This document shows positions 13,871 through 45,014 of a stretch of DNA of 64,000 bases, piece after piece. The stretch is from a bacterium (GTDB lineage Bacteria > Patescibacteriota > Dojkabacteria > JAKAPS01 > JAJZLI01). A program made the translations under genes and the position numbers. The DNA is taken from assembly GCA_021785355.1 (NCBI GenBank), contig JAJYFR010000002.1, positions 10,529-74,528 of the forward strand, written 5' to 3'. Each line of letters begins with the position of its first letter. Positions within the stretch are counted from its first letter, which is position 1. The notes below the pieces were generated by a model that did not search any database, had not been told where the DNA came from, and saw only the letters and a program-made list of their open reading frames with translations.

Positions 13871-13961
13871 ATTATAAAAACAACAAAAAGATTATAGCAA
13901 ACAAATATATTGTATGCAACTTGTAATATAAAAATTTAATCTTTAATGATATAATAAAGGT

Positions 13962-25614: not shown

Positions 25615-25660
25615 AAATATATATAAATTATATTAACAATTTAGCATTTAAAAATTTTAT

Positions 25661-26464
25661 TTACAACAGAATATAAATAAAATATATAATAAAAAGTAAT
25701 ATATTGAATATGAATATATATAAATTAAGAGTTGTATGATCTAAAGCTAAAATAATAGCAGATATTATATATAAAACCAGATAATCTCTTATAAATCTTA
25801 AAATATTTTTAAATTTAGAATCATTCCTAATTTTTCTTACAAAGAACAAGAAAAGCATTGTCCCTAAAATAATTACAGATATTAAGATATTAATAGCACC
25901 AATTATAAATCCAGGAGTATCTATAGATCCAAATATATTATAATTAGTACTACTATTAGGATAATAAAAAATATTTATAGATTTTTTTATAACAATAGGA
26001 TACTCAGTATATGTTGTATCAAGAGCAATAACATTATACATTAAAGGTTTATTATAACTGGACTCCAAGAAAGCTATAGCTTCTCCATTCTTATTAGTAG
26101 GATTTTTAGGCTGAGTTATTATAAGCGAGTCTTTTTCCTGAGCAGATGAAAGTATAACTCTTTGATTAGATAAAGGATGATCTTTATTTGAAAAAACAAA
26201 AATCTTAACTTCTACCCTCTTTTTATAATACAAATTATTAGAAGAGAGTGATATTTTTGTGTTATTTGCTATTAAATTAGACCAATTCAATAAAAGAGGA
26301 GTATAACCTCCTACAGTTACACTACTTGCATTTATTGGTTTTACAAAAAATATAAATACTAATAGTAATAATATTACCTTTTTAAGAATCTGGAAACGAT
26401 TTGCCATAATAAAAAGATAAATAACAAAACTAATAAAAATATAAACCATAGAGGTAATACCCAA
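25661..26464 (-). CDS. Signal-peptide protein with a beta-rich ectodomain and 2-3 C-terminal TM helices. The probable true start is Met20 at ~26407 (MANRFQILKK...).
   Basis: It is not an ATP synthase a-subunit: there is a large soluble domain and no conserved Arg-containing helix. It is the first gene of the minus-strand surface-protein operon. Confidence 0.4.
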   Translation of the reverse strand: MGITSMVYIFISFVIYLFIMANRFQILKKVILLLLVFIFFVKPINASSVTVGGYTPLLLNWSNLIANNTKISLSSNNLYYKKRVEVKIFVFSNKDHPLSNQRVILSSAQEKDSLIITQPKNPTNKNGEAIAFLESSYNKPLMYNVIALDTTYTEYPIVIKKSINIFYYPNSSTNYNIFGSIDTPGFIIGAINILISVIILGTMLFLFFVRKIRNDSKFKNILRFIRDYLVLYIISAIILALDHTTLNLYIFIFNILLFIIYFIYILL

Positions 26465-27315
26465 AATGTGCTAGTACTTTGAGTTGTAGTTATTGTATTA
26501 TAACCATATGTTAGAATTAGTTTAGCAGTATACTGTCCTAAAAGAAGATTTGATGAATTCCAAGTAGTATTATATATCCTACTATTAACTCCCACTGGAA
26601 GTACTATATTTTTTTGAGGATTGAAAGCTATTGTCTGAATTTTATCTCCAAACATATTATAAATCTCAATAATACCTTGAGGCAATAAATGTACATTACC
26701 TGTATCTACAAATTGGGTTTGAAATTTAACAGGAGTTGAAAGATAAAAGAAATTATTAGCTGAAAATGATTTTATATATCCTGTCTCTTTAGCTAAACCG
26801 TTTATTCTGACTAGAAATAATGAACCTACTGCAGTATTTAGTAATACATTTCCTTGAGACACTCCATTATTAATTTTAGCAAAAACTCCAATAAAATATT
26901 CTCCAGGAAGTGCATTCGAAGAAGCAGATATATTAATGCTCAAATCTGTAGGCACATGAGGAGGTATTAGAGTATTACCATTAGTACTTAACGAAAGATC
27001 TGGATCATTTATATTTCCTACAAAAACTTTCTCAAATTTGGGTTGACCAAATTCATTTGCAGATACAAAATTAGCAAATATAGCACTTACATTTACAGCA
27101 CTATTACTATTATTATAAACCGTGATATCTTGTACTAAACTTTGACCTTTATTAATATTTACATCTGTTAGTATAGGAGAGACAGTTATACCGCCAACAC
27201 TTGCACCTTCTTTTGAAGAATTTGAGTTATTTATATTTCCTACAAAACTACTTTGAGCATAAAGAGGAGATGGCAGTATAAATAACAAAAGTAAAATTAA
27301 TAATATTTTTTTCAT
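26374..27315 (-). CDS. Cell-surface anchor protein with signal peptide, beta-rich ectodomain, single C-terminal TM and a basic tail (DUF916/DUF3324-like, CscA-like). Paralog of 31212..32096 and 33499..34371.
   Basis: GYIKSFSANNFFYLS...TGNVHLLPQGIIEIYNMFG...LILTYGYNT aligns with GFVKTFSTSNFFNFS...TGDIELAPQGFIIIKNLWG...LILNYGYGS in 31212..32096. C-terminal TM followed by SRFLKR. Confidence 0.5.
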   Translation of the reverse strand: MKKILLILLLLFILPSPLYAQSSFVGNINNSNSSKEGASVGGITVSPILTDVNINKGQSLVQDITVYNNSNSAVNVSAIFANFVSANEFGQPKFEKVFVGNINDPDLSLSTNGNTLIPPHVPTDLSINISASSNALPGEYFIGVFAKINNGVSQGNVLLNTAVGSLFLVRINGLAKETGYIKSFSANNFFYLSTPVKFQTQFVDTGNVHLLPQGIIEIYNMFGDKIQTIAFNPQKNIVLPVGVNSRIYNTTWNSSNLLLGQYTAKLILTYGYNTITTTQSTSTFWVLPLWFIFLLVLLFIFLLWQIVSRFLKR

Positions 27316-27326
27316 GCAATTTCATA

Positions 27327-28427
27327 TTAGAAGTTACCACTAGCTAGATATGTAACATTATCTGTATAGATACCGGCAGGCGTCACAACTGAAATAGCTG
27401 AAAGATAATTCACTTGTAAAGTAACTAAGTATATTGGTGAAGTTGTACTTGCAAGTAATGTAGGTGCAAGATTCAATCCTCCAACTGAATCACCTGTTCC
27501 ATTATATGGTGAAGCAACAGTAAGCGTTCCTACAACTCCTCCAGAACCAGCAGTTGAAGTTACTGCTGAATTTACTCCATATCCTTCTGTCCCTGCAGCA
27601 AGAGTTGCTGTTGCACTAGGAATAGTATGTGTTGCTAAAGAATTATATAAACCTGGATTAGTACCATTGCCTTGATCATATACAGTCACACTAGCACCTG
27701 ATCTAGCATTTGTTGATAAAGTAAGTGTTGTAGCAGGAGAAGAAGTATTAACTGATCCTATTTGCAAAACTCCAAAATTTGTAGCATTAGAAGACAATGC
27801 AAAAGTTATCTCAGGAGTTACTCTTGCTGTAACAGCAACTGTGCTATTAGATAATATAGGTACAGCTAAATATCCATCATCTGATGCAGAATCTGTAACA
27901 TCTATAACATATTCATTCACAGAAGTAGATGCATCAGGAGGATTAGTTGCAGTTATACCATTAATGACAATAGCATTTCCAGATGCAATTGCAGCTGTAG
28001 TTGTTATGACAACTTCAGTAAATGTATATCCTGAAAAATTAGAATCTGATACACCTGTAGTTACTACAAAATTCGTATTTGTAGCAACTGTAGTCCCTGC
28101 AGCCGTAACAGTTGCGCCTGAAGAAACAGCTACTGCAGAAAATCCTGTATTAGTCTGCCCACCTCCTACCGTAGAACCTGTTTGAAAATACACATTTATT
28201 GTAGATCCTGTACCAAGTGCAGTAGGTGCTGTATATGTAATTTTATGATTAACTCCTGTTGCAGATATAGATTCAGGACCATTTGTTCCTATACCTGAAG
28301 AAGATAATGTGTCAGATATTGGAGAAAGTGATGCTGCATTTAAACTAAAAAACTCTAAGAATGGAGATAGTGAAACCACTAAAACCATAGATAAAAATAA
28401 CATGAAAGCTTTTCTTGTTTTATACAT
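27327..28427 (-). CDS. Secreted surface protein. Its N-terminal beta-rich domain is shared with 29365..31209, and it carries the C-terminal WxL-like module.
   Basis: Signal peptide ...LNA|AS. INGITATNP block is shared with the 614-aa protein. C-terminus ...TPAGIYTDNVTYLASGNF. Confidence 0.5.
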   Translation of the reverse strand: MYKTRKAFMLFLSMVLVVSLSPFLEFFSLNAASLSPISDTLSSSGIGTNGPESISATGVNHKITYTAPTALGTGSTINVYFQTGSTVGGGQTNTGFSAVAVSSGATVTAAGTTVATNTNFVVTTGVSDSNFSGYTFTEVVITTTAAIASGNAIVINGITATNPPDASTSVNEYVIDVTDSASDDGYLAVPILSNSTVAVTARVTPEITFALSSNATNFGVLQIGSVNTSSPATTLTLSTNARSGASVTVYDQGNGTNPGLYNSLATHTIPSATATLAAGTEGYGVNSAVTSTAGSGGVVGTLTVASPYNGTGDSVGGLNLAPTLLASTTSPIYLVTLQVNYLSAISVVTPAGIYTDNVTYLASGNF

Positions 28428-28510
28428 ATGCGCACTAAATTAATAATATTAAAATCTATTACAAAAACTCTATATTAAATGAAATAATATGTCAATAGTT
28501 TTTTTAATAT

Positions 28511-29302
28511 TTAAAATATTAATATTAAATATCCTAATACTAAAGTTACCATAAAAATAAATATTAGGGATATAATAATAAAAACAAGATTTTTTTCTAT
28601 AGAATCTTTTGATAAAGGATTTCTAGATATACCCAATAAAGAGTGTTTTAAAGAGACACTAACTCCATATATAAGAGTAAATACACCAACTGATATTATT
28701 AAAATAGCTATAAGAGAGTTAAAAAAAGAAACATTTTTTCCAACAACTGCTTTACCAAATGAAAGTAATATTCCCGAAAAATTATTATTATATGTAAAAT
28801 ATGATATTCCTAAAAGAACAGGTATTTTTTCTACTAAAATTTGAACACTCTTCCCATTTTGAAAAATAGTTTTTTTATATAAAAAATGTGAGAATGAAAA
28901 ATTACTCAAAGCTTTTCCTAAAATTTTTCCACTCTGGGTATCTTTTTCCCCGACACCAGGGATAATAGAAGATGTTATATAATCCCCTTTTTTAATAACT
29001 CCATTAATATTTGAAACTAAAACATTAACAGTTCCAGAACTTACAACAGGAACATTGCCAGATATACCGGTTGTAATATTACTTTTATAATCAACTACAC
29101 CTACAAGATTATTATCATTCGGAGATGTAGTTGGATATACACCTAATACAATATTATTTCCTCCAACAGAAACTATTGAATTATTTGAAATATTTTTTAC
29201 TAATGGAGCAAAATATTGAGATATACTCTGAGCATAAAGAGAAGAAGATAGAAAAAATAATATAGTTAATATATAAAAACTGATTTTAAAAAATTTATAC
29301 AT
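28511..29302 (-). CDS. Secreted protein with a C-terminal TM anchor. Paralog of 19792..20544.
   Basis: Shared motifs VSNINGVIKKGDYITSS..PGVGEK, RNPLSK and the terminal TM ...LGYLILIF. Confidence 0.5.
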   Translation of the reverse strand: MYKFFKISFYILTILFFLSSSLYAQSISQYFAPLVKNISNNSIVSVGGNNIVLGVYPTTSPNDNNLVGVVDYKSNITTGISGNVPVVSSGTVNVLVSNINGVIKKGDYITSSIIPGVGEKDTQSGKILGKALSNFSFSHFLYKKTIFQNGKSVQILVEKIPVLLGISYFTYNNNFSGILLSFGKAVVGKNVSFFNSLIAILIISVGVFTLIYGVSVSLKHSLLGISRNPLSKDSIEKNLVFIIISLIFIFMVTLVLGYLILIF

Positions 29303-29330
29303 ATTATTATATTATTTGAAATCCCAATAA

Positions 29331-29358
29331 TTGACAATAACACAACCTATTATATAAT
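29331..29358 (+). promoter_or_regulatory. Sigma70-like promoter TTGACA-N16-TATAAT, ending 6 nt before the ATG of 29365..31209 (candidate leaderless transcript).
   Basis: Read directly from the sequence: ttgacaataacacaacctattatataattaaactATG. Confidence 0.35.
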
Positions 29359-29364
29359 TAAACT

Positions 29365-31209
29365 ATGAAAAAAATGTTTTCTCTGTTATTTATAATTTTT
29401 ATATTTTTTGTATTAGCATCTATATTTACTCTTAATGCAGCACGATCAACTCCCATAGAAGACATTATGAGTAATAACACAGTATCTGCACAAAGCAATA
29501 ATAACCTTCTTATTACAGCACAATCAGGTCTTCCAGCTAATGCATCTATTACAATAGTATTTCCATCTGCTTTTAGTTCTATTAATACATCTGCTGCGAC
29601 TATAAATCTTACAGGGGGAGCATTTAGTGTATCTGGAAATACTATAACTATAACAACAACTACACCTATAGAAGCTCCTGGATTTCAAATTAATATAAAT
29701 GGAATAACTGCTATAAATCCTGCAACCGCATCAAGTACAACTACTCAATATATTATAAATTTTTCAGATACAGCAGGAGATAGTGCAGGAATTGGTGTTG
29801 TTATAATTCCTTCATCAGGATATGGTTCTGGACCAGCTGGAGATAAATATGAGCAAGCTATTACAATAAATAGTACTAACACAAGTACTCTAACTAATTA
29901 CCAAGTTAAAGTAACTCTAAATACTCAAGCATTAATTACAGCAGGAGAGATGAGATCTGATTGTGCTGACATCAGATTTACAGATTCTTCTGGAAACCTA
30001 CTTCAATATTGGCTAGAAGGAGGATGTAATACATCTACAACTCAAATTTGGGTAAAAATACCTAGCATAACTGCATCTGCAAATACAATTATATATTTAT
30101 ATTATGGATCTCCTAATGCAGTATCTACAAGTAATGGAGGTGCGACTTTTAACTATTTTGACCAAGGAAATTCTATTTCTAATTGGGTTCAAGTAGGTTC
30201 TGCAGGACAAATCACATCTATAGGAGATCCTTCTCCTTCATATTATACTAACAGTATAAATGGAGATTATATGTATGAGAATATAGGGCTTACACCTAAT
30301 GAAGCTGTAATATTTAATGGGAATACAACTGTTCTTGGAGATTTTTATTTTCTTACAAATTCTACAGGGGCAGGACAGATGTATAGATTTGGAATTAGTG
30401 CTGGTTGGTTTGGTTTTGCAACAACAAATTCTTGGACATCATGGAATTCACCTGGAGGCTCAGGTCTTCTTTCGAATACTTGGTATAAATTTGAAATAGC
30501 AATTACTTCTTCTACTTCAGCATCTTTATATTACAAACAGACTACAGGAGACTCTCCTTTAATTAACGGTACTCTACTTTCTACAAATACAATTATTAAT
30601 GACGGAGGATATATTGGTCTAATAGGAGATGCCGCTGGAACAGGTATAACTTATTGGGATAATATTATTGTTCGACAATACTCTTCTCCAGAACCAACAA
30701 CAACTATCTCTTCTTCTGTTACTAATCTTAACAACAACCAAGTAGAATTAACATTGAATGTTACTCCATATATTACATTTGGAGTAAGTTCTAATAGTGT
30801 TAATTTAGGAATAGTCTCTTATATAAATCCTACTGTACAGAACAATACTCTTTCTCTTACAACAAATGCTACTAATGGTGCTAATATAACTGTACAAGAT
30901 CAATATGCTGGATTATATAATTCTCTTGCTTCATACACTATTCCATCTATAACAGAAACTCTTGCTTCCGGAATAGAAGGATATGGAATTAATGCAAATT
31001 CTTCAAATATGTCTATCTCTTTTCCTTTTAGTGGTACGGGAGATAGTATTGGAGGATTAAGTATCTCTCCTGCAGAAATACTTTCATATATCTCTACTCC
31101 TATTCAATCAGGAAGTGTTAATGTTAACTATATTGCATCAGCCTCCAATATTACTCCTACAGGAATATATTCTGACAACATTACCTTTATTGCTACTGGA
31201 AATTTCTAA
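29365..31209 (+). CDS. Large secreted surface protein: shared N-terminal domain, then DUF2341-like, LamG-like (concanavalin-type lectin), and the C-terminal WxL-like module.
   Basis: DIRFTDSSGNLLQYWLEGG...IWVKIPSITASANTIIYLYYGSP matches the DUF2341 consensus. A LamG-like region follows. C-terminus ...TPTGIYSDNITFIATGNF. Confidence 0.6.
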   Translation: MKKMFSLLFIIFIFFVLASIFTLNAARSTPIEDIMSNNTVSAQSNNNLLITAQSGLPANASITIVFPSAFSSINTSAATINLTGGAFSVSGNTITITTTTPIEAPGFQININGITAINPATASSTTTQYIINFSDTAGDSAGIGVVIIPSSGYGSGPAGDKYEQAITINSTNTSTLTNYQVKVTLNTQALITAGEMRSDCADIRFTDSSGNLLQYWLEGGCNTSTTQIWVKIPSITASANTIIYLYYGSPNAVSTSNGGATFNYFDQGNSISNWVQVGSAGQITSIGDPSPSYYTNSINGDYMYENIGLTPNEAVIFNGNTTVLGDFYFLTNSTGAGQMYRFGISAGWFGFATTNSWTSWNSPGGSGLLSNTWYKFEIAITSSTSASLYYKQTTGDSPLINGTLLSTNTIINDGGYIGLIGDAAGTGITYWDNIIVRQYSSPEPTTTISSSVTNLNNNQVELTLNVTPYITFGVSSNSVNLGIVSYINPTVQNNTLSLTTNATNGANITVQDQYAGLYNSLASYTIPSITETLASGIEGYGINANSSNMSISFPFSGTGDSIGGLSISPAEILSYISTPIQSGSVNVNYIASASNITPTGIYSDNITFIATGNF

Positions 31210-31211
31210 AA

Positions 31212-32096
31212 ATGAAAAAATTAATACCTATTATAGTCTTTCTAATTATACTTATACCTCAAAGAATATTTGCCTCTACTAACTATAATACTCTTACCCT
31301 CACTCCTACTCTTACAAGAATTTCTTTATCAAGAGGAGATATATACAAAGGAAAAATCAAAATAATAAATAATTCTGTAAAAACAGCATATATAAGTGTA
31401 GGAATAGTAGGATTTAGACAAAATGGAAATAGTAATACCCCCTTATTTTCAAAAAAAATTAATAATAAATCTCAGGCAATTCATTGGGTACATATAAAAA
31501 ATATACAAAGCATAAAAGGGAATACAAACTTAGAATTAAAATATATTATAAATATACCTACCAATGCATCTTCAGGTGGACATTATATAGCAATAATAAT
31601 AAATAAAAGGATAGGAAATACCAATATTGAAGAATCTTTAAGATCACTAATTATTATAGATATTAAAGGTAAAATGAAAATCTCAGGATTTGTAAAAACA
31701 TTTTCTACATCAAATTTTTTTAATTTTTCAAATAAAATAGTATTTAATATAAATTTTGAAAATACAGGAGATATAGAACTTGCTCCTCAAGGTTTTATAA
31801 TAATAAAAAATTTATGGGGAGGTGTTGTAAAAATTATACCTATAAATCCAACAGGTTCTTTAGATCTATCTCATTCTCAAAGAAAATATCAAAACATATG
31901 GAATAATAAAGGATTTTTATATGACAGCGGAATATATAATGCACAATTGATACTTAATTATGGATATGGAAGTACTTTTTATAATATAAATAAAAATATA
32001 AAATTTTACATAATTAATCCTTTGTATGTAATTATATTATTAGGTATAATAATATTTATATATATAATAATAAAAAAGAAATGGGGAAAAAAATAA
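31212..32096 (+). CDS. Cell-surface anchor protein (DUF916/DUF3324-like, CscA-like). Paralog of 26374..27315.
   Basis: Signal peptide, beta-rich ectodomain and a C-terminal TM followed by KKKWGKK. Alignment with 26374..27315 as given for that feature. Confidence 0.5.
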   Translation: MKKLIPIIVFLIILIPQRIFASTNYNTLTLTPTLTRISLSRGDIYKGKIKIINNSVKTAYISVGIVGFRQNGNSNTPLFSKKINNKSQAIHWVHIKNIQSIKGNTNLELKYIINIPTNASSGGHYIAIIINKRIGNTNIEESLRSLIIIDIKGKMKISGFVKTFSTSNFFNFSNKIVFNINFENTGDIELAPQGFIIIKNLWGGVVKIIPINPTGSLDLSHSQRKYQNIWNNKGFLYDSGIYNAQLILNYGYGSTFYNINKNIKFYIINPLYVIILLGIIIFIYIIIKKKWGKK

Positions 32097-33499
32097 TTTT
32101 CACAATAAGTTTTATACTTTTTTTTGTACTTATAACTAGAGTATATGCTCAAGTTCCCCCTACAGATACATCTTCATCATACATATTAACAGATCCTGTT
32201 TTTGGAGAAAGTGGTCCATATACACAATCTTCTCCAAGTTTTCAAGAAAAATCTACTTTAGGACAACTAGTTACTGGAGTATCTCAATCTACAAATTTTA
32301 TACTTAAATCTGGATTTGAATATTATTCAGGACAATCAGTACCTTCTATTACAATGAGTATTAATACTAATTCTATAAATTTTGGAAATCTTCTACCAGG
32401 TACTATTTATAAATCTCCCACAAATACAATTATCACTATCTCTTCTAATTCAGAAATGGGATATAACCTTTATGCTTCAGAAAATAATAATCTTGTGAAT
32501 AATCAAGGATTCCAGATTCCTCCTGTAAATAATGGAGCTACTAGTACTACTGCAGCAGCATATACTTCTACTGCATATACAGGTCTAGGATATAACTGTA
32601 GTACTTCTAACTCATTTGAACAAGCAGTTTTAGCTGACAACCCTATTGCTTTCTGGGCACTTTCAGAAACTACAGGAACTACTGCATATGATCTGTCTGG
32701 GAATGGAAATAATGGGACATATACGGGAGGATATACTCAAGGAGAACAAGGTCCAATTTCAAATTCTAACCTTGATAAATCAACATATTTTAATGGATCT
32801 ACAAGTTATATAAATTTACCTCAAAATTTAACAAATAATGCAAATTTTTCAACACTTACATTCTCTTTATGGTTTAAGACTACATCTGATGGAACATTGC
32901 TTGGTAATCAAAACAGCACAGTAGGTATTACACCAGGTTTTGATAATAGTTTGTTATATATAGGAACTAATGGATATTTATGTGGAGGAATAGATATTCC
33001 TCCAGGATTTTGTAATAGTACCAATATTAATGATGGTAAATGGCATAATGCAGTGTTAACTGTAAATAACTCTTCGGGTCAATCTTTATATCTAGATGGA
33101 CAATTAGTAAATACTGCTGGAGTTCCAAATACATTTAGTACGAATTATACACAAATAGGAGTTGGTTATGATCAAGGTTGGACCTATGCTTCTGCTGGAT
33201 GGTTTTATTTTAAAGGAGAAATTTCTAATGTTGCTGTATATCATACAGCCTTAACACAATCTCAAATTCAGACTATTTTTAATGCTGGAATAGATAATCA
33301 ATCACCTTTCTGTAATAATGATTTTATAAATACAAATTATTACAGACAATTATCTTCTACACCTACTCAATTTGCATCATTCTCTTCTATTGCTAATAAT
33401 CAGAGTATTGCTGTAGGATATGCTGTAAATATTCCCGCAACACAAGCATCTGGTAATTATACAAATACTATTACATATACTTTAGCAGGTAACTATTAA
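32081..33499 (+). CDS. Secreted LamG-domain protein. The WxL-like module appears split around the LamG insertion.
   Basis: DLSGNGNNGTYTGG...FSLWFKTTSDGTLLGN...DGKWHNAVLTVNNSSGQSLYLDGQLV...FKGEISNVAVYHTALTQSQI is a classic LamG (Laminin_G_3) pattern. The N-terminal SITMSINTNSINFGNLLPG...GYNLYA resembles the first half of the shared module, and the C-terminal ...ATQASGNYTNTITYTLAGNY resembles its second half. Confidence 0.6.
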   Translation: MGKKIIFTISFILFFVLITRVYAQVPPTDTSSSYILTDPVFGESGPYTQSSPSFQEKSTLGQLVTGVSQSTNFILKSGFEYYSGQSVPSITMSINTNSINFGNLLPGTIYKSPTNTIITISSNSEMGYNLYASENNNLVNNQGFQIPPVNNGATSTTAAAYTSTAYTGLGYNCSTSNSFEQAVLADNPIAFWALSETTGTTAYDLSGNGNNGTYTGGYTQGEQGPISNSNLDKSTYFNGSTSYINLPQNLTNNANFSTLTFSLWFKTTSDGTLLGNQNSTVGITPGFDNSLLYIGTNGYLCGGIDIPPGFCNSTNINDGKWHNAVLTVNNSSGQSLYLDGQLVNTAGVPNTFSTNYTQIGVGYDQGWTYASAGWFYFKGEISNVAVYHTALTQSQIQTIFNAGIDNQSPFCNNDFINTNYYRQLSSTPTQFASFSSIANNQSIAVGYAVNIPATQASGNYTNTITYTLAGNY

Positions 33500-34371
33500 T
33501 GAAAAAATATTCTATAATCTTTGCAATACTTTTTTTTCTAACTTTTTCTCAAAGTGTATATGCATCTACAAATAAAGAAACATTGAGAGTAACTCCTGCA
33601 TATATATCAATTACAAAAAGTTCTAATACTAATACCTCTGAGAATTTATCTATACTAAATGAATCTTTAATACCTTTAGAAGTATCTCTTTCTCAGGGAA
33701 ATATAGAATATATAAATAAAAAACTCACAATCACTCAGAATAATGCAATAACAAATATAAACAGCTGGATTAAAATCACACAAAAATCTTTCATAATACA
33801 ACCTAAAGCTACAATAAATATACCTGTGGACATAAATATTCCTAAAAATACAAAAAATGGATCATATAACGGAGAAATTACAATATCTAATATAACTAAA
33901 AATCTTTCAGGACAAAGCAGAGTAGAGGGAAGTATTGTAATTAATGTATTTGTAAATATAAGAGGAAAGAATAAAAACTACTCAAATATAAATAGTAAGA
34001 TTTCATACCTTCCTTTATTCATAAATACTCTTCCTTTAAATTTAGATTATACTCTTAATAATCCTGGACCTTACAATAATGCAGCAATAATAAATATAAA
34101 TACACAATCTTTGTTTTATTCAAAAAATACGCCTACTAATGTAATCAACCTTTTAGTAGAACAGACAAGGTATAAAACATTTCAAATTCAAAATATCCCT
34201 TGGGGAATATACAAAATATCTTTTAATACAAATAATATAGGAGAGAAAATAAATAAAGAAAAATCTTTCTATATTATTTATCTACCTTACTATATTTACC
34301 TAATATTAGGAATAATAATTATTATTATAATTTATTTAAAAGTAAGAAAATCTAAAGTTAAATATTTTTGA
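33499..34371 (+). CDS. Cell-surface anchor protein (DUF916/DUF3324-like). Third paralog.
   Basis: Signal peptide, TLRVTPAYISI... beta-rich ectodomain and a C-terminal TM followed by KVRKSKVKYF. Start overlaps the previous stop (TAATG). Confidence 0.45.
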   Translation: MKKYSIIFAILFFLTFSQSVYASTNKETLRVTPAYISITKSSNTNTSENLSILNESLIPLEVSLSQGNIEYINKKLTITQNNAITNINSWIKITQKSFIIQPKATINIPVDINIPKNTKNGSYNGEITISNITKNLSGQSRVEGSIVINVFVNIRGKNKNYSNINSKISYLPLFINTLPLNLDYTLNNPGPYNNAAIININTQSLFYSKNTPTNVINLLVEQTRYKTFQIQNIPWGIYKISFNTNNIGEKINKEKSFYIIYLPYYIYLILGIIIIIIIYLKVRKSKVKYF

Positions 34372-36469: not shown

Positions 36470-36835
36470 TTATTTTTCTATAATTTTTTGTAGAATTTCA
36501 AATGATAGTCTAGCACATTTTTCTCTTGAAAAAGAAATGTCCATCAACATTTTTTCTTTTATTAGAGAAAAATCTATTTTTTTTATATCATTAATACTTT
36601 TTCCTTTTACTTCCTGTGTTAGAATCGATGCCGCAACCTTAGATATTATACAACCATTTGACACAAAAGAAATATCTTCTATGATATCTCCTTTATATTT
36701 TACATATATTTTTATACTATCTCCACATAAAGGGTTCTCTCCTTCTTCTAATATATCAAAATCCTTCATATCTCCATAATTTTTAGGATTATTATATATA
36801 TCTATTATATAGCTTCTAGTAAGGTAACTGTCCAT
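36470..36835 (-). CDS. sufU: SufU/IscU-like Fe-S cluster scaffold.
   Basis: NPKNYGD...CGDSIKIY...GCIISKVAAS...KCARLS: the three conserved Cys. Directly downstream of sufS. Confidence 0.65.
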   Translation of the reverse strand: MDSYLTRSYIIDIYNNPKNYGDMKDFDILEEGENPLCGDSIKIYVKYKGDIIEDISFVSNGCIISKVAASILTQEVKGKSINDIKKIDFSLIKEKMLMDISFSREKCARLSFEILQKIIEK

Positions 36836-36840
36836 AATAA

Positions 36841-38034
36841 TTAAAATAAATCTGATATCTTAGAAAGAGAGAGAGATACTTTATCTATATCTTCTTGTGT
36901 ATTATAAAAATATAAACTAATACGTGATAGTGCATATACACTAAGTTCTTTCATTAAAGGTTGAGCACAATGATGTCCTGCTCTAATTGCAATATTTTCT
37001 TCATCCAAGAATGTTGCTATATCATGAGGATGAATATTTTTTATTGAAAAAGAATATATTCCGAAATCATTTTTTGCTCCATATATTTTAATTCCATTAA
37101 TTTTTACAAGATTTTCATAAAGATAGAAAGAAAGCTCTTTTATATACAAGGAGATTTTATTCATTCCTACTTTATTTATATAATCTATAGATTTTCCAAA
37201 AACAATTGTATCTGCAAAATTAACAGTACCTGCTTCAAATTTGAAAGGCGCATTTTTATATACACTCTTATTTTTATCTACAGATATTATCATTTCTCCA
37301 CCTCCAAGTAATGGAGGCATTTTATCTAAAAGCTCTTCTTTTCCATATAATATTCCAACACCTGTAGGACCTAGCATTTTATGCGCAGAAAAAGTTAAAA
37401 AATCACAATCTAATGATTTTACATCAATTTGTATATGAGGTGCAGCTTGTGCAGCATCAACTATAACAAATGCATTTATTTTTCTTGCTTTTTTTACTAT
37501 ATCTTTAATATCATTTCTAGTACCTAGTACATTTGATATATATGTAAGAGAAATTATTTTAGGTTTTATTTCTAATAGAGAATCTACATTTTCTAAAGAG
37601 AAGTTTTCTTTATTTATATCTATATATTTTATACTAAATCCAATTTCTTTCTGTAGTATTTGCCATGGAACTATATTTGAATGATGCTCCATCAAAGATA
37701 AAAGTACTGTATCAGTTTTTTTTAATATTGATTTTGCAAAAGTATACACAACTAAATTTAAACTCTCTGTTGTATTACGAGTAAATACTATTTCATTACT
37801 CTTAGCATTTATAAATTTAGCACTCTTCTCTCTAACTCCCTCATACATAGAAGTTGCCTCTTCTGAGAGTCTATATATACCTCTATATACATTTGCATTA
37901 AAATTTTCATAAAAACGAGAAAATTCATCAATAACTATCTGAGGTTTTTGTGTTGTTGCTGCATTATCTAGATAAACTAGGTTCTTTCCATAAAATTTTG
38001 TATTTTTAAATATTGGAAAATCTTTCTTATTCAT
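36841..38034 (-). CDS. sufS: Cysteine desulfurase SufS.
   Basis: PLP-lysine region SAHKMLGPTGVGILYG and active-site RAGHHCAQPLM. Confidence 0.9.
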   Translation of the reverse strand: MNKKDFPIFKNTKFYGKNLVYLDNAATTQKPQIVIDEFSRFYENFNANVYRGIYRLSEEATSMYEGVREKSAKFINAKSNEIVFTRNTTESLNLVVYTFAKSILKKTDTVLLSLMEHHSNIVPWQILQKEIGFSIKYIDINKENFSLENVDSLLEIKPKIISLTYISNVLGTRNDIKDIVKKARKINAFVIVDAAQAAPHIQIDVKSLDCDFLTFSAHKMLGPTGVGILYGKEELLDKMPPLLGGGEMIISVDKNKSVYKNAPFKFEAGTVNFADTIVFGKSIDYINKVGMNKISLYIKELSFYLYENLVKINGIKIYGAKNDFGIYSFSIKNIHPHDIATFLDEENIAIRAGHHCAQPLMKELSVYALSRISLYFYNTQEDIDKVSLSLSKISDLF

Positions 38035-38771
38035 AAATTTTTTATAATTTTCTTATACCCTAAACTCTCTATTTTTTCTATTAAAATACGACCTCCTGAT
38101 TTTACTATTTTACCATCATTCATTATATGAACTTTTGAAATATTTATCTTATCTAGCATTTTTTTCTGATGAGTAATTATTAGAAATGTTATGCCTTCTT
38201 TATTAAGAGTATTAATACTTTCTGTAATAAATTTTATTCCATCTACATCTAGACCTGAATCTATTTCATCTAATATAGCAAATTTAGGTTTTAGAATTGC
38301 AATTTGAAGTATTTCCATTCTTTTTTTCTCCCCACCAGATAATCCTTCATTAAGATTACGAGAAAGAAAAGTGTCATCAATTCCTAATCTCTTAGATTCT
38401 TTTTTTAGTCTTAATATAAATTCAAAAATTTCAATATTTTCTTTATATATAGATTTATATGCAGTATATAGAAAAGTTCCAAAATTAACTCCAGGAACTT
38501 CTACTGGATTTTGAAAAGCTAAAAACATACCTTTTCTTGCCCTAAGATATGGTTTCATATTATTAATATTTTCTTCAAAAAAATATATATCTCCATCAAT
38601 TATTTTATATTCAAATGAACCCATAAGAATTTCTGCTAAGGTAGATTTCCCTGAACCATTAGCACCCATAATTACTTGAATATCTTTCTCTTTTAAAGAT
38701 AAATTAATGCCTTTTAAAATTTCTTTTTCTCTTGCATTTACCTTTAAATCTTGTATTCTTAATATATTCAT
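38031..38771 (-). CDS. sufC: Fe-S cluster assembly ATPase SufC.
   Basis: Walker A GANGSGKSTL, ABC signature LSGGEKKR, Walker B AILDEIDSGLD. Confidence 0.9.
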   Translation of the reverse strand: MNILRIQDLKVNAREKEILKGINLSLKEKDIQVIMGANGSGKSTLAEILMGSFEYKIIDGDIYFFEENINNMKPYLRARKGMFLAFQNPVEVPGVNFGTFLYTAYKSIYKENIEIFEFILRLKKESKRLGIDDTFLSRNLNEGLSGGEKKRMEILQIAILKPKFAILDEIDSGLDVDGIKFITESINTLNKEGITFLIITHQKKMLDKINISKVHIMNDGKIVKSGGRILIEKIESLGYKKIIKNL

Positions 38772-39151
38772 ATGAAATCTATAATTTTAATATCACTAAA
38801 TTTTGAACGTATCTCTTCATTTAACTTATTAAAGACTTCCTTAGAACTACATTGATCCTTCACTGAACAATCATCTTTAATACACTCAGTTAATAAAATT
38901 TCATTTCCTAAAGCTTTCATAACATCATAAACACTGAGCTCTGATGGATCAACATTAATCATATATCCTCCATTACTACCTTCTTTAGTTTTTACAATAT
39001 TTTTATTAAGTAATATATTTAGAATCTTTCTTGTAAAAGGTATAGGTAAAAGAAGTTTCTTACAGATATCACTTACTGACACAAAGCTTTCTTGTTTTGC
39101 AAGAAAACTAATTATTAAAATTGAATAATCTTCTAGTTTTGTTAATTTCAT
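38768..39151 (-). CDS. Rrf2-family (IscR-like) transcriptional regulator.
   Basis: N-terminal winged HTH MKLTKLEDYSILIISFLAKQ...VSDICKKLLLPIPFTRKIL, as in Rrf2 proteins. Confidence 0.7.
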   Translation of the reverse strand: MKLTKLEDYSILIISFLAKQESFVSVSDICKKLLLPIPFTRKILNILLNKNIVKTKEGSNGGYMINVDPSELSVYDVMKALGNEILLTECIKDDCSVKDQCSSKEVFNKLNEEIRSKFSDIKIIDFI

Positions 39152-39205
39152 ATAAATGTGACTATTTTAGTAAAGTATAAGTATATTATATATAGACTTA
39201 CTTAG

Positions 39206-39517
39206 TCAAATTCTTATATATAATAAATTTTCTTTTTTTATAATTTTATATATATTAATACTATTAAATGCAGGAAGAGATAGTGCTTTACCTGTCAAAA
39301 GATCAAATTTTGCTCCATGATGAATACATGTAACTACCTTTTTCTCTTCATCAATCAATCCATCATCTAAAGGATATTTTTCATGAGAACAACAATTATC
39401 TATTGCTAATATTGAATTCTTCAAGAAATATACAAATATATCCCTTCCTTCTAAATTAAATGTATAACCTTTATGTTTTTCAAAATTTTTAATATCTCCT
39501 AATAAAATTTCTTTCAT
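39206..39517 (-). CDS. Rieske-type [2Fe-2S] ferredoxin-like protein.
   Basis: CCSHEKY...TCIHHGAKF gives the C-x-H...C-x-x-H spacing of Rieske clusters. Confidence 0.6.
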   Translation of the reverse strand: MKEILLGDIKNFEKHKGYTFNLEGRDIFVYFLKNSILAIDNCCSHEKYPLDDGLIDEEKKVVTCIHHGAKFDLLTGKALSLPAFNSINIYKIIKKENLLYIRI

Positions 39518-40134
39518 ATATTTTTTATAACTTCATTTATAACTTTTTCTCTAAATTTTTGATCTTCTATATCTTTGAGTTTAGCTATTAAGAATCCTGA
39601 AGATATACTATTTATAGAATCTTTTTTATTAATACCCCTACTCTCAAGATAAAATAATTCATCTTCTCTTATTCCTGAGATTGAAGATGCATGAGATGCT
39701 TTGACATTATTAGGTATTATTTCTAAAGATGGAATGACTTTTGATACAATTCGATCTCCCAAAAGAAGTGTTTTTTCATTAAAATATGCATTTGAACCTG
39801 TGGCGAATTTGTCTATTTTCACAAGACCCTTTATAAAAGATAAACTCCCATCTCTCATAACTCTTCTTATATATGTCTTTGATATTGTATTAGGATATAT
39901 ATGTTCTATTTTAAGATTAATATTTATATCTTGTCCTAGAATACCATTCTCTATAACATATAGATGTAATTTACAAAATTCTTTCTTAAGATTAAAATTC
40001 ATATCAATATTTTTTTTCTGAGGAGTATCTATTATAAGAACAAATACTAAAACTTCATTTTGTTTTAAGGATATATCTTCTTTTATATCCAGAGCATTAT
40101 ATTCCGATATTCTTTTAAAAATAAATCTATTCAT
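39514..40134 (-). CDS. sufD: SufD-like protein (206 aa, C-terminal beta-helix half only).
   Basis: ...[28 protein letters not shown] aligns with the SufB/SufD C-terminal motif (compare SufB ...[20 protein letters not shown]). Confidence 0.55.
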
Positions 40135-41537
40135 CCCACAGAGCCTTCCATTTCTAATTTAATTAATCTGTTTAATTCTACTGCATATTCCATAGGTAGT
40201 TCTTTTGCGATTGGCTCTAAAAAACCACTAACTATCATAGAAGATGCCTCATCCTCATTAAGACCTCGAGACTCAAGATAAAAAAGCTGATCCTCTCCAA
40301 CTTTGCTTACTGTAGCCTCATGTTGTAGCATAGGCATTTTAACATGATCAACATTTATAGTAGGATATGTGTCTGTACGAGAATACTCATCCATAAGTAG
40401 AGCATCACATTTAACATCAGATTTTATATTTTCTACTCCGTCTTTAGCATCTATTAAACCTCTGTATGTAGTTCGTCCTCCATCTCTAGATATTGATTTT
40501 GATACTACCTTAGAAGAAGTATTTGAAGACGCATGTATTATTTTAGATCCTGCATCTATATGTTGTCCTTGTGATGCTGATGCCATTGATAAAATTTCTC
40601 CATGAGCCCCTTCTTCCATTAGATAAACTGAAGGGTATTTCATAGTAACTCGAGATCCAAAATTTCCATCAACCCAATACATTTTTGCATCTTTATAAGC
40701 TATAGCTCTTTTTGTAACAAGGTTATATACATTTTTAGACCAATTCTGAATTGTAGTATATCTAACATTACTACCTTTTTTACATATAATTTCAACAACA
40801 GCTGAATGAAGAGAATTCTCATCATATATAGAAGCCGTGCAACCCTCCAGGTAGTGAACTGAAGATCCTTCATCCGCAATAATAAGAGTTCTCTCAAATT
40901 GTCCCATTGCTTTTGCATTGATTCTAAAATATGCCTGAAGAGGAATATCCAATTTAACTCCTTTGGGAATATATACAAAACTCCCACCTGACCATACTGC
41001 ACTATTCAAAGCTGCAAATTTATTGTCATAAGGAGAAATTACAGTTGCAAAATATTCTTTTAATAAGTCTGGAAATTCTTTTAGAGCTGTGTCTGTATCT
41101 GTAAATATAACACCTTTATCTGAAATTTCTTTCATAAGATTATGATAGACTACTTCACTTTCAAACTGAGCTTCTACTCCAGCCAAAAACTTACGTTCAG
41201 CCTCAGGAATCCCTAATTTTTCAAAAGTATCTTTTATATCCTGAGGTACATCATCCCAACTCTTAGAATTATTTTGAGAAGAACGTATAAAATAGAAAAA
41301 ATCATTAAAATCTATATCCGAAAGATCTGCTCCCCATGAAGGCATAGGTTTTGATATAAATATATCGTAAGCTCTAAGCCTAAACTCTCTCATCCATAAA
41401 GGTTCATTTTTCATAAAAGAAATTTCTTCTACTATTTTTCTAGATAACCCTTTTTTAGATTTAAAAACATAATTAGAAGGTGTAGAGAATCCAAATTCGT
41501 ATTGTTTTTCAGTCTGTTTCATATTATTTATGGCCAA
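40131..41537 (-). CDS. sufB: Fe-S cluster assembly protein SufB.
   Basis: Full-length ~468 aa with the SufB motifs (…[19 protein letters not shown]…[10 protein letters not shown]…). Confidence 0.9.
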
Positions 41538-41764
41538 ATTTGTTTACCTGTCTCATCTTTAAGAATTATTGCAGAAACTGGACAACTCTTAGACGCCTCT
41601 AGAACAGTTTCATAATCATCAATTTCTTGACCTACCATATATGCTTTACTCTCTTGATCCATATCAAAAGTATCAGGGGCAATAGCAACACAACTTGATG
41701 CGCCAATACATAAATCTCTATCTATTTCTACAAAAATTTTTTTCCCTTCTTTTGTTATATACAT
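41528..41764 (-). CDS. Small single-cluster ferredoxin.
   Basis: [12 protein letters not shown]...SCPVSAI Cys pattern. Confidence 0.55.
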
Positions 41765-41770
41765 ATATTT

Positions 41771-41992
41771 TTATTCTACAGATTCTACAGATTTTATTTC
41801 AGGAAATTCATCTTTTATAATGCTCTCTATTCCGTCCTTTAGTGTAATTGAAGAGAGAGAGCATCCAACACAAGCTCCCATCATTTTTACTTTAACTATA
41901 TTTTTTTTTACTTCCAAAAGCTCTACATCTCCTCCATGTTGGAGAATAAATGGCCTTATTTCATTCAATAAATTTGATATCTTACTTTTCAT
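41771..41992 (-). CDS. NifU C-terminal-domain (Nfu-type) Fe-S carrier.
   Basis: GGDVELLEVK...VKMMGACVGCSLS has the CxxC motif of the Nfu domain. Confidence 0.65.
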   Translation of the reverse strand: MKSKISNLLNEIRPFILQHGGDVELLEVKKNIVKVKMMGACVGCSLSSITLKDGIESIIKDEFPEIKSVESVE

Positions 41993-42033
41993 AAGGTATA
42001 TATTACCATAAAAGTATTAGTTTGAAAAATTTT

Positions 42034-42684
42034 TTATTTACAAATAAGAGGAAGAGATTCATCTCCCCATAATCCATAGCCTGATCTGGGAGTAACATTA
42101 ATGCCTGTACTAGTGACTGTTACAGTAGGAGACTTGCCTCCAGAAAGATAGAAGACTCCACCTCCTTCTTTACAAAAACCCACAGTATATCCTAAAGGAT
42201 AACCTCCCACTCCTGAAGATGAAGATGAAGATACATAATCATTAAAATAAAAATATTGAGTTTGTGTTGCTGATGTAAAATTTGAAGGATTAGGATATCC
42301 ATCAAACCCTGATCCTCCTGCTGAAAACGATTGTTTTAAAATTGTAGGTTGTACAATCCAGGTATAGACGTTAGGAAAATTAATAGGTTGATAAATAGTA
42401 AAACAAACATTTCCCAGATTAGCAGATCCTGTACAGGAAGAATTCTGATTTTCAAACAATATATCAGAAGGATAGTAGTGATGAGTATTAAAATATGACT
42501 GGATATCTGTATTAATAGATGATATAGCTTGAGCTCTAATGCTATTTCTAGAAGCTATCTGGGCTCCATTTATACCTATTATTGCTACACTAATAAGGAT
42601 ACCTATTATTGCAAGAACCACAAGTATCTCTACTAAACTAAAAGCTTTTTTGGATATATATAATTTTTCCTTAATTTTTAGCAT
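42034..42684 (-). CDS. Type IV pilin (prepilin with leader ...SKKA|FSLVEIL, Glu+5), a large pilin with 4 Cys.
   Basis: The N-terminal hydrophobic helix FSLVEILVVLAIIGILISVAIIG matches the class III signal. The C-terminus has the GFCKEGGGV motif. Confidence 0.75.
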   Translation of the reverse strand: MLKIKEKLYISKKAFSLVEILVVLAIIGILISVAIIGINGAQIASRNSIRAQAISSINTDIQSYFNTHHYYPSDILFENQNSSCTGSANLGNVCFTIYQPINFPNVYTWIVQPTILKQSFSAGGSGFDGYPNPSNFTSATQTQYFYFNDYVSSSSSSGVGGYPLGYTVGFCKEGGGVFYLSGGKSPTVTVTSTGINVTPRSGYGLWGDESLPLICK

Positions 42685-42724
42685 AACAAATATTATCTAT
42701 TTTATATCACAAACTATATGTTAA
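42461..42724. repeat. Copy 1 of a ~260-bp near-identical duplicated segment (pilin 5' coding region + upstream promoter + 13-nt remnant of the guaB-like start).
   Basis: Direct comparison with 43281-43540 shows long identical runs, including ...ttttatatcacaaac(t/c)atatgttaataaaag. Confidence 0.7.
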
Positions 42725-42780
42725 TAAAAGGAGAATTCACTAAAAATACTTCTACTATAAGTAATACATTTAGTTTTAGT

Positions 42781-43509
42781 TTAATTACAAGAAAATGTTG
42801 AAATCGACGTACTGTTATTAGGTATAAGTCCCCATAAATGATAAGAAGAAATACGATTTGCAGGAACAGAGATTGTCACACTATTCCCAGTAACATTCAT
42901 ATCCATTCCTAGACCTCCTTTCAAAACACTAACGCCTCCTCCTTCTTTACAAAAACCTAATATATATCCTTGAGGATATTGATAATTATTTTGATCATAA
43001 ACTAAATCAACATAAAAAAATTGTGTTGTTGAAGGAGTTGTAGCTCCGTTATAATTACTAACTCCTTCGGATTGAGTATATCCATCAAATCCAGAATAAG
43101 ATATCAATGGAGGTTTAGATAGACTTGTATCATAAACAACCCAAAATCTTCCTGTTGTAGAATATGTAGGAGGATATATTCCTAAACATATTCTTGATGT
43201 ATCAGTAAAATTTCCATTCTGAGACTGACATGAAGAATAAGAAGATCCTGTAAAATTTGCCTTATTAGAAAACCAAATATCAGAAGGATAGTAGTGATGA
43301 GAACTAAAATATGATTGAATATCTACATTAATAGCAGATATAGCTTGAGCTCTAATGCTATTCCTAGAAGCTATCTGTGCTCCATTTATACCTATTATTG
43401 CTACACTAATAAGGATACCTATTATTGCAAGAACCACAAGTATCTCTACTAAACTAAAAGCTTTTTTGGATATATATAATTTTCTCTTGATTTTGAGTAT
43501 AATATACAT
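42781..43509 (-). CDS. Type IV pilin, a tandem paralog. Its N-terminal 60 aa are near-identical to 42034..42684 and the C-terminal domain has diverged.
   Basis: Same prepilin N-terminus and a shared GFCKEGGGV motif. Confidence 0.75.
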   Translation of the reverse strand: MYIILKIKRKLYISKKAFSLVEILVVLAIIGILISVAIIGINGAQIASRNSIRAQAISAINVDIQSYFSSHHYYPSDIWFSNKANFTGSSYSSCQSQNGNFTDTSRICLGIYPPTYSTTGRFWVVYDTSLSKPPLISYSGFDGYTQSEGVSNYNGATTPSTTQFFYVDLVYDQNNYQYPQGYILGFCKEGGGVSVLKGGLGMDMNVTGNSVTISVPANRISSYHLWGLIPNNSTSISTFSCN

Positions 43510-43540
43510 TGTTTATTTTATATCACAAACCATATGTTAA
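43281..43540. repeat. Copy 2 of the duplicated pilin 5'/promoter segment. It overlaps the genuine guaB-like start codon.
   Basis: See copy 1. Confidence 0.7.
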
Positions 43541-44628
43541 TAAAAGAAGCATTAACTTACGATGATATATTACTCTCCCCTCAAAGATCCAAAATAAAGA
43601 CAAGAAAAGATACAGATACAAAAACCAAATTAACTAAAAATATCTCTATAAATATCCCTATTGTTAGTGCAAATATGGATAGTGTGACTGAAAGTTCTAT
43701 GGCTATACATATGGCACTTGAAGGAGGAGTAGGAGCTATACATAGAGTAATGAGTATAGAAAAACAAATAGAAGAAATAAGTAAAGTTAAAAACTATGAA
43801 TTTGATAAAAATAATTATGAACTTGCAAATACAGATAAAGAAGGAAAACTTCTAGTTGGAGCATCTTTAGGTATACGTATGAATCCTAAAGAAAATTTAA
43901 AACAATTAATAAAAGCAGGTGCAGATTTTATAATTATAGATGTAGCTCATGCACATTCAGAAAGTGTTATAGAACTAGTAAAAGAAATAAAAAAAGAATA
44001 TAGAGAAGATATTGAATTGATAATTGGTAATATTGCAACAGCAGAAGCAGCAAGAGATTTTTTAGAATTAGACGTATCTGGAGTAAAGGTAGGTATAGGA
44101 CCTGGATCAATTTGTACAACTAGAATTGTAACAGGAGTAGGTGTTCCTCAAGTAACAGCTATTGATGATGTATATTCAATCTTAAAAGAAAGCTCTATTC
44201 CTATTATCGCAGATGGAGGAATAAGAAATTCCGGTGATATTGTAAAAGCTCTAGCTCTTGGGGCATCTAGTGTTATGATAGGAAATTTATTTGCAAGATG
44301 TGAAGAAGCTCCAGGAGAAATAGTTATAAAAGATGGAAAAAGATATAAAAATTATAGAGGAGAAGCATCCTTTTCAGAAATAAAAAAAAGATTTGAAATA
44401 GATAAAAGAAATGATATTAAAAATATAACCCCTGAAGGAATTGAGGGTATAGTTCAAGTGGTAAGCAATGTTGAAGACACAATTAGAAATCTTGTGGGAG
44501 GTATAAGATCAGGGTTAAGTTATTGTAATGCATATAACCTAGAAGAACTAAGAAAAAATGCAAAATTTTTAAAAATCACAAATGCTGGATTAATAGAAAG
44601 TAACTACCATGATATTATTAAATTATGA
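43534..44628 (+). CDS. IMP dehydrogenase/GMP reductase family protein (catalytic TIM barrel only, no CBS pair).
   Basis: Active-site loop [11 protein letters not shown] and [21 protein letters not shown]. Length 364 aa. Confidence 0.85.
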
Positions 44629-45014
44629 GTTATGACAAAGAACAATTACAGAATGATACCTTAAGAAATTTAAAAGAATCTTCTTTGAGTGAAGAAGAAA
44701 AAACTAAAATTGCAAAAGATTTTTTTGCTGCAGTAGCTGAAGAAAAAGAAAATAAATCTATAGATAAACTTAATATTTTTTATGATTATCTAAAAAGTTT
44801 CTTTCTTCCTATATATGGTTTCGTTATTGGAATAAAAAAAATAACAGAAGAGGATTATATTAACGGTGTAATTTGCATAATTTTAAATATAATAGAAATC
44901 ATACTTATAATATCTTCTCTTTCAGGGTTATTCTCTACAAAAGGTAGCATTTCTCAAATAAGTAAGGGTATAGGAGGAGGATATAAATCCATAAACACTC
45001 CAATAGGAAATTAG
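44625..45014 (+). CDS. Hypothetical small membrane protein.
   Basis: One or two TM helices. Coupled to the upstream gene by a 4-nt overlap. Confidence 0.35.
   Translation: MSYDKEQLQNDTLRNLKESSLSEEEKTKIAKDFFAAVAEEKENKSIDKLNIFYDYLKSFFLPIYGFVIGIKKITEEDYINGVICIILNIIEIILIISSLSGLFSTKGSISQISKGIGGGYKSINTPIGN

Follow-up and report, generated by a model that had tools for sequence, protein, structure and literature searches.

Two tandem type IV pilin genes of a Dojkabacteria bacterium join a near-identical 5′ module to strongly diverged heads

The two type IV pilin genes considered here, A1 (positions 42034-42684, 216 amino acids) and A2 (42781-43509, 242 amino acids from its first ATG), lie in tandem on the minus strand of a 64,000-nucleotide stretch of a Dojkabacteria genome, referred to below as the window (GenBank contig JAJYFR010000002.1, positions 10,529 to 74,528). 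With a probability of about 0.72, we read them as a tandem pair that is specific to this lineage and unites two old types of head (the C-terminal domain); its 5′ module has, on this reading, been homogenised by gene conversion, and the pair supplies two subunits with one assembly interface. Specifically, the pair would have arisen by tandem duplication, or by tandem insertion of a second allele, with the upstream junction 24 nucleotides inside a neighbouring IMPDH-like gene. Intragenomic conversion would then repeatedly have homogenised a module of about 297 nucleotides that contains a promoter-like block, the leader and the alpha1 helix to ...HHYYPSD, the latest such event extending across a core of 105-147 nucleotides, and the heads would represent two old types that are found one per genome in related lineages.

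The physical basis for this reading is a single ungapped direct repeat that a repeat search finds between 42445-42741 and 43261-43557 (297 nucleotides, 90% identical, offset +816), running from about codon 75 of the pilin through the leader and the promoter-like block to 24 nucleotides into the divergent IMPDH-like gene. The first copy holds A1 codons 1 to about 75, the A1 upstream region and a relic of the IMPDH start; the second holds the N-terminal coding part of A2, the 24-nucleotide intergenic region between A2 and the IMPDH-like gene, and the first 24 nucleotides of that gene. Base-by-base comparison reveals that identity within the repeat is stepped. A core of 105 nucleotides (42563-42667, partner 43379-43483), which encodes the end of the leader and the N-terminal part of the mature alpha1 helix, is 100% identical, and the wider core of 147 nucleotides (42521-42667) has two mismatches, both synonymous. 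On one side, the 60-nucleotide coding segment 42461-42520 (to ...HHYYPSD) is 87% identical; on the other, the 74 nucleotides that contain the leader, the 5′ region and the relic (42668-42741) are 82% identical, with 13 mismatches. A perfect run of 105 nucleotides among 30 mismatches is improbable by chance (permutation P = 1e-5, with the mismatches clustered non-randomly), and the repeat is therefore not of a single age. No third copy of the 105-nucleotide core is present in the window.

The right edge of the repeat is sharp, with 26/30 matches giving way to 9/30 past 42741. Because chance identity at 27% GC is about 30%, which the matches at the edge far exceed, the extension of the similarity into non-coding DNA is real. 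Within this extension, the block 42698-42730 has only one mismatch in 33 nucleotides and contains two elements. The first, identified by inspection of the sequence, is an extended -10-like element on the minus strand, TGATATAAAAT, at 42699-42709 upstream of A1 and at 43515-43525 upstream of A2. The second is the 13-nucleotide copy of the IMPDH start on the plus strand, ATGTTAATAAAAG, at 42718-42730; the similarity continues for another 11 nucleotides, such that the whole relic (42718-42741) matches 43534-43557 at 21 of 24 positions. A unique spacer of 39 nucleotides (42742-42780) separates the repeat edge from the A2 stop codon and marks the duplication or insertion junction. The downstream edge of the duplication is less distinct, as comparison by eye of 41993-42033 with 42742-42780 gives only a vague AT-rich resemblance.

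An earlier description of the locus, made from the letters alone and called here the sequence-only reading, anticipated much of this anatomy. Its -10-like element is conserved in both copies, its 13-nucleotide copy of the IMPDH start is real (and longer than was proposed), and this relic supports its suggestion that the duplicated unit spanned the divergent intergenic region. Its repeat intervals, 42461-42724 and 43281-43540, do lie within the repeat, although the second is about 4 nucleotides out of register at its left end. The near-identity that it ascribed to the upstream region needs to be qualified: similarity does extend into non-coding DNA, but the true non-coding part is only about 80% identical and the near-identity belongs to the coding core. 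Likewise, the leaders are not identical as it had stated, being 14 and 17 residues long with 13 of 14 aligned residues matching, whereas the mature N-termini are indeed nearly so. The two ATG codons fall 9 nucleotides apart in the alignment; the ATG of A1 aligns with ATA in A2, and the ATG of A2 with ATA in A1.

It is informative to compare the two halves of the proteins with each other and with their counterparts elsewhere. Five related genomes were recovered, here L010, L011 (which has the same pilin and arrangement as L006-L009), L012, L013 and L014, on contigs labelled as Patescibacteria or as unclassified metagenome-assembled genomes. Over mature residues 1-60, A1 and A2 are identical at 56 of 60 positions (93% at the amino acid level and 92% at third codon positions), whereas either of them compared with each of the five orthologues gives about 50-63% amino acid and 37-50% third-position identity. 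The heads of A1 and A2, in contrast, are 36-37% identical in amino acids and 49% identical at third positions, the saturated level seen between genera. Consistent with the stepped repeat, the synonymous divergence (dS) between A1 and A2 is 0.10 over mature codons 1-45 versus 0.32 and 0.47 in the flanking coding segments. Neighbour-joining trees separate the two halves as well: the N-terminal tree pairs A1 with A2, whereas the head tree places A1 with L011/P0004 (63-64% identity) and A2 with L010/P0003 and L012 (45-49%). Indels and motifs back these head groups, namely a long SSYSSCQSQNGNF loop and an LWGLxP...C tail common to A2 and L010, and a GVGG insertion common to A1 and L011. We refer to the two kinds of head as alpha-type (A1) and beta-type (A2). 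Near-identity of silent sites in the 5′ module next to their saturation in the heads, together with head affinities that cross species, is the classic mark of a converted module and not of a young duplicate that is still to diverge, and we infer that gene conversion, a form of concerted evolution, homogenised it.

These same data bear on the simpler proposal that the whole gene was duplicated recently and that very fast positive selection then remodelled one head, with no conversion needed. The junction relic upstream of A1 would fit such an event, and heads in this family can change quickly in place, as those of L010 and L012 have done. Nonetheless, positive selection does not saturate silent sites, and the third positions of the heads are saturated next to a module in which 92% of them agree; the A2 head shares its indels and motifs with L010 and L012 and the A1 head with L011; and a single recent event does not account for identity that steps from 100% to 87% and 82% inside one repeat. 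We consider a recent duplication of this kind unlikely.

The related genomes also place the tandem arrangement in context. A single pilin occupies the syntenic site in all five, and four of the five have the order IMPDH, pilin, NifU-ferredoxin-SufB; in L014, a conserved 129-amino-acid gene precedes the pilin, and NifU and ferredoxin follow it without SufB. Because the five relatives hold one pilin each, the tandem state is specific to the lineage of the window. Furthermore, the slot seems to turn over in more than one way. Between L011 (6010-6672) and L013 (5911-6555), the flanking genes are 84-95% identical (68-72% at third positions), whereas the pilins agree at 38-47% of third positions and their heads are 39-43% identical, a pattern that points to replacement of the whole allele. 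Between L010 and L012, the flanks are 94-96% identical (about 81% at third positions) and the third positions of the pilin N-terminus match at the same level as the flanks, but the head falls to 68% at third positions and 61-67% in amino acids, which points to fast change in place. Judged from these sequence comparisons, the pilin slot is a hotspot of divergence and turnover in the relatives.

Such turnover invites the proposal, a version of our own reading that departs from it in the origin alone, that the beta-type allele arrived by lateral transfer from a related lineage and settled beside a resident alpha-type gene, so that the pair would be an incomplete allelic replacement whose 5′ parts were homogenised later. 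The apparent replacement between L011 and L013 provides a precedent at this very locus. In addition, the identity of the A1 head to L011 lies inside the range of housekeeping genes (58-77%) whereas the A2 head has no close partner, and the presence of one gene in five of five related genomes fits the late arrival of a second. Set against this, no donor above 49% head identity came to light, the present picture would look the same after an ancient duplication followed by differential loss, and a simple tandem duplication explains the IMPDH relic at least equally well. We therefore hold the lateral route only tentatively, as a possibility of some substance that falls short of being probable.

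The family itself is small. A word-indexed search of 5.8 billion proteins returned only four members, and a profile search of 1.84 billion representatives gave four clusters at E < 1e-30 plus a handful of remote full-length relatives, which share a ...GY[IL][IV]GAC[LT]EN... core; the other approximately 39,000 profile matches cover the N-terminal helix only. No relatives were found by a protein-pattern scan of the metagenomes of the Joint Genome Institute (JGI), and 53 JGI matches to a back-translated GFCKEGGG pattern all proved unrelated by tblastn and were discarded.

That both proteins are type IV pilins, as the sequence-only reading had it, is upheld by matches above the cut-offs of PF07963 (26.1 bits for A1 and 26.8 bits for A2, cut-off 21.2) and TIGR02532 (26.5 and 27.3 bits, cut-off 16.3). 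A profile search of the PDB with the family matches only the alpha1 regions of type IV pilins (Geobacter PilA, Myxococcus PilA 8tj2, Streptococcus sanguinis PilE1 8pfb and Neisseria PilE). The leaders are rich in Lys; that of A1, MLKIKEKLYISKKA, precedes a mature protein that begins FSLVEILVV..., and the mature sequence FSLVEILVVLAIIGILISVAII... has the pilin signature of Phe at +1, Glu at +5 and a hydrophobic alpha1N. The mature proteins would be 202 (A1) and 225 (A2) amino acids long, and Gly, Ala, Ser and Thr together make up 36-37% of the pilins, within the range reported for exposed pilins of Saccharibacteria (PMC11623550). The heads, although diverged, are homologous as had been claimed: GFCKEGGG is present in A1, A2 and all five orthologues, and the seven homologues have four Cys in common, one close pair and a second pair formed by the GFCKEGGG Cys and the penultimate residue. 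One NCBI gene call for A2, P0001, has 218 amino acids and begins MVLAIIGIL... inside the alpha1 helix, thereby losing the signal peptide; this start looks like a mis-call, and the 242-amino-acid version with its leader is the plausible one. On the opposite strand, each N-terminal coding region of the pilins is accompanied by an antisense open reading frame of 61 amino acids (42539-42724 and 43355-43540), the two mirroring one another. Both are explained by the repeat and by the AT-rich sequence, and it is very unlikely that either is a gene.

Several observations weigh against our reading. Conversion is deduced from a pattern of identity in the sequence, and a single recent overwrite of the 5′ end would give the same pattern as repeated conversion; similarly, the second head might go back to an ancient duplication with losses elsewhere or to lateral acquisition. 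Promoter-like sites in this AT-rich DNA are no commoner than in shuffled sequences, a consensus scan having found 10 versus 11.1 expected. In both leaders the residue at -1 is Ala (KKA|FSLVE), versus the canonical Gly. An AlphaFold2 model built from a four-sequence alignment is too poor to reveal the fold of the head, with a predicted local distance difference test score (pLDDT) of 46.8 and a predicted template-modelling score (pTM) of 0.43; it contains a low-confidence helix at residues 20-70 and predicted beta strands. Last, Pfam scans of about 60 open reading frames in the window, together with gene tables extending 10 kb past each end, contain no pilus machinery (prepilin peptidase, PilB/C/D/T/M); this is an orphan pilin locus, lying between IMPDH and NifU/Suf genes. 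With regard to the -1 position, the residue is Gly in five of five orthologues and Ala is a derived state common to A1 and A2, although further pilins in the databases have it too (P0039 and P0047 read KKAFTIVE). Streptococcal ComGC likewise has Ala at -1.

The sequence-only reading went further and regarded the identical 5′ ends as recombination sites by which the two genes would swap their heads under one promoter, an antigenic or functional switch of the Neisseria kind. There is indeed ample homology for recombination (297 nucleotides with a perfect core of 105), there is a second block of homology at GFCKEGGG, and in the relatives the heads encoded at this locus change very rapidly. The geometry, however, is wrong for a switch. 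The repeats are direct and 816 nucleotides apart, so that a crossover would delete the A2 head and leave a single A1-type gene; unequal exchange would amplify a copy and conversion would homogenise the two, and neither would exchange heads. What the direct repeats allow is thus homogenisation, deletion or amplification of a copy, and not an exchange of heads. Moreover, both genes are complete, and none of the promoterless, 5′-truncated silent cassettes that would feed such a system is present; a motif scan of the 64 kb found only two pilin motifs, and the core does not occur a third time. No G-quadruplex motif (G3+N1-7 x4) exists on either strand of the window. The four assemblies compared are 100% identical over 41900-43700, and the protein clusters at 90% identity hold exact sequences and one alternative start call, with no chimeras.

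The second homology block (42155-42201, partner 42932-42978) encodes ...GY.vGFCKEGGGV and is 47 nucleotides long and 83% identical, with an exact run of 20 nucleotides. It is the sole similarity at the DNA level within the heads. Because it is also conserved across genera, being 86% identical over 42 nucleotides to the related locus L014, it reflects constraint on the motif rather than conversion. An inversion switch fares no better, since the orientation of the long repeat is direct, 41000-45000 contains no inverted repeat of any length (the best is 36 nucleotides at 72%), and no recombinase is seen among the neighbouring genes. We thus regard head switching as very unlikely. On the sequence evidence, the identical 5′ ends are instead a mark of past gene conversion.

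The sequence-only reading had recommended comparing the region with itself and had named misassembly as the way in which it could fail. Self-comparison confirms that the repeat extends past the coding N-terminus. The concern would be that alleles of a single pilin gene from two strains had been joined end to end, and it is true that two short contigs stop within the repeat or at its border (window positions 42569 and 42737). Nonetheless, 13-14 contigs of up to 757 kb carry the exact proteins, nearly all of the listed or summarised places have the same neighbouring genes, and the four loci compared (L001, L003, and L002 and L004 as far as they reach) are 100% identical to the window over 41900-43700. 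The perfect core is shorter than the k=141 implied by k141_ contig names, and the 39-nucleotide spacer and the IMPDH relic are reproducible. With several contigs and identical loci in agreement, misassembly was excluded, and we assign the artefact a negligible probability.

How the pair might be expressed follows from the layout of the module. From its conservation and position, we infer that TGATATAAAAT acts as a promoter for the pilin strand. Contrary to the proposal of a shared promoter, each gene has its own ATG and is preceded by a separate copy of the promoter-like block. At A2, the -10-like element precedes the ATG by 7 nucleotides, which would suggest, speculatively, a leaderless mRNA; on the other strand, it lies 8-18 nucleotides from the IMPDH ATG. 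The position of the duplication junction inside the IMPDH gene would be explained by the overlap of the putative pilin promoter with the IMPDH start, as a working copy of the promoter would have to carry the start codon along with it. The two pilin genes are 96 nucleotides apart in the list of open reading frames, and a terminator scan found no terminator-like site between them; read-through co-transcription is therefore conceivable, if speculative. On the pilin strand, terminator-like sites are confined to the 3′ end of A1, where the fold is no better than that of shuffled sequences (z = -0.12), and the only Rfam matches in the window are two tRNAs, both far from the locus.

Although the two genes differ in their heads, their products agree in the prepilin-peptidase site and in the interface of the filament core, their promoters are similar, and one machinery would presumably process and polymerise both. 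The outcome would be mixed filaments, or alternative filaments with two surfaces that might confer, for example, two attachment specificities. A more elaborate version of this idea sees a two-specificity attachment system of an episymbiotic bacterium of the Candidate Phyla Radiation (CPR), in which two horizontally exchanged head types, each with one host-surface specificity, would stand behind a common assembly and promoter module maintained by conversion. Since the duplication also copied what precedes the IMPDH start on the plus strand, transcription might begin at the 42718 relic and run antisense to A2, making expression of the two heads hierarchical or mutually exclusive. The relic opens a 27-codon reading frame (42718-42801) antisense to the 3′ end of A2, which we call meaningless. 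This elaboration strikes us as quite improbable.

Among known systems, the closest in layout is Streptococcus sanguinis, in which two to three major pilins with near-identical N-termini co-assemble into heteropolymeric pili, the subunits PilE1 and PilE2 being built into the same filament without being functionally equivalent (PMC6497953, PMC11121087). Its PilA1 and PilA3 are identical over residues 1-53 and differ in their C-terminal parts, and the copy number varies between strains (PMC6497953, PMC11121087). The likeness to A1 and A2 lies in adjacent, complete pilin genes with a near-identical leader and alpha1N. The heads of the streptococcal pilins are, however, 70-94% identical, whereas here they are two old types at 36%; the streptococcal genes lie in a pil machinery locus, whereas ours form an orphan locus beside IMPDH and Suf genes; and the streptococcal leader ends in Gly rather than Ala. 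By analogy, A1 and A2 may work like the multi-pilin pili of S. sanguinis, although we do not claim that they belong to that group.

The resemblance to Neisseria pilE/pilS, by contrast, consists of a conserved 5′ sequence, variable heads and non-reciprocal recombination between copies. There, the variable part is donated by many promoterless, 5′-truncated silent cassettes. A1 and A2 are both complete and presumably expressed, and conversion has affected the conserved 5′ module and not the head; furthermore, the window lacks a G-quadruplex element, and the compared assemblies do not vary. A different parallel is offered by slot alleles, the pilA groups I-V of Pseudomonas aeruginosa and the class I and II pilins of Neisseria meningitidis, in which very divergent head alleles occupy the same slot, are apparently exchanged by recombination and normally occur one per genome. 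The present locus shares with them divergent heads in one chromosomal slot (compare L011 with L013) but differs in that one genome has two allele types, fixed as a tandem pair whose 5′ ends have been homogenised. The Moraxella tfpQ/tfpI system with Piv, the type of inversion switch considered above, relies on inverted repeats that flank an invertible segment and on a site-specific recombinase. Within the CPR, pili of the Saccharibacteria (TM7x) mediate host binding and motility, and several pilin loci and orphan pilins are found there (PMC11623550). The present pilins are similar in belonging to a CPR bacterium, in being orphans and in having the Gly+Ala+Ser+Thr-rich composition of exposed pilins (PMC11623550). 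Unlike them, the TM7x PilA1 and PilA2 have separate loci and separate machineries and do not form a tandem pair with a shared 5′ module, and protein database searches detected no sequence relationship between our heads and the TM7x pilins.

The genes around the pair complete the description of the locus, in a window with a GC content of 26.8%. The divergent gene on the plus strand (43534-44628, 364 amino acids) begins 24 nucleotides from the A2 start, and its own start overlaps the promoter-like region of A2. It belongs to the IMPDH/GMP-reductase family (PF00478, E = 2e-133); the NCBIfam IMPDH model matches its product as two separate stretches, which suggests a protein without the internal CBS/Bateman insert, and it scores below every NCBIfam equivalog cut-off, so that IMPDH and GMP reductase are both candidate identities. 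Directly downstream of the pilins, on the minus strand (36470-41992), is a set of Fe-S cluster genes: NifU-like, ferredoxin, SufB, a short SufD-like gene, Rieske, Rrf2, SufC-like, cysteine desulfurase and a NifU_N scaffold. The gap of 41 nucleotides between A1 and NifU contains no terminator-like site, and co-transcription of pilin and Suf genes is therefore possible.

Farther away, 24856-34371 holds nine genes on both strands, eight of them with Sec-type signal peptides and the ninth with an N-terminal hydrophobic segment, and most without a Pfam family; a DUF2341 gene lies at 29365-31209 and a ConA-like LamG domain at 32081-33499. A DUF2341 protein is also encoded near the Suf genes in the relative L006. 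The signal peptides in this cluster of secreted proteins (24.8-34.4 kb) are of the ordinary Sec type, and none of its proteins has a pilin leader. At the left end of the window (8-6709, minus strand), a protein of 2233 amino acids combines Kelch beta-propeller repeats (Pfam, about residues 856-1097) with a membrane or signal segment at its N-terminus; it is probably one of the giant surface proteins that are common in CPR genomes. Beyond the right end, about 3-7 kb out on the same contig, the locus L070 carries toxin-antitoxin genes (BrnT/CopG-like and YafQ-like; 13876-14480 and 16000-16269) and a DUF3800 gene.

Pili are among the few tools that CPR bacteria (Patescibacteria) are thought to use to find and hold their hosts, and to our knowledge their pilins have hardly been studied outside the Saccharibacteria. 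Pilin paralogues that combine one N-terminus with variable heads and evolve in concert are well known from other bacteria; this is a known arrangement of pilin genes with no novel mechanism, its value is illustrative, and its interest for the surface biology of the CPR is moderate. Nonetheless, the locus is a clean, small example of modular pilin evolution, in which a module for assembly and promotion is kept uniform, apparently through gene conversion, and the heads are exchanged, or diverge far faster than their housekeeping neighbours. Should the heads prove to bind different partners, such a pair would represent a simple genetic route to a wider host range.

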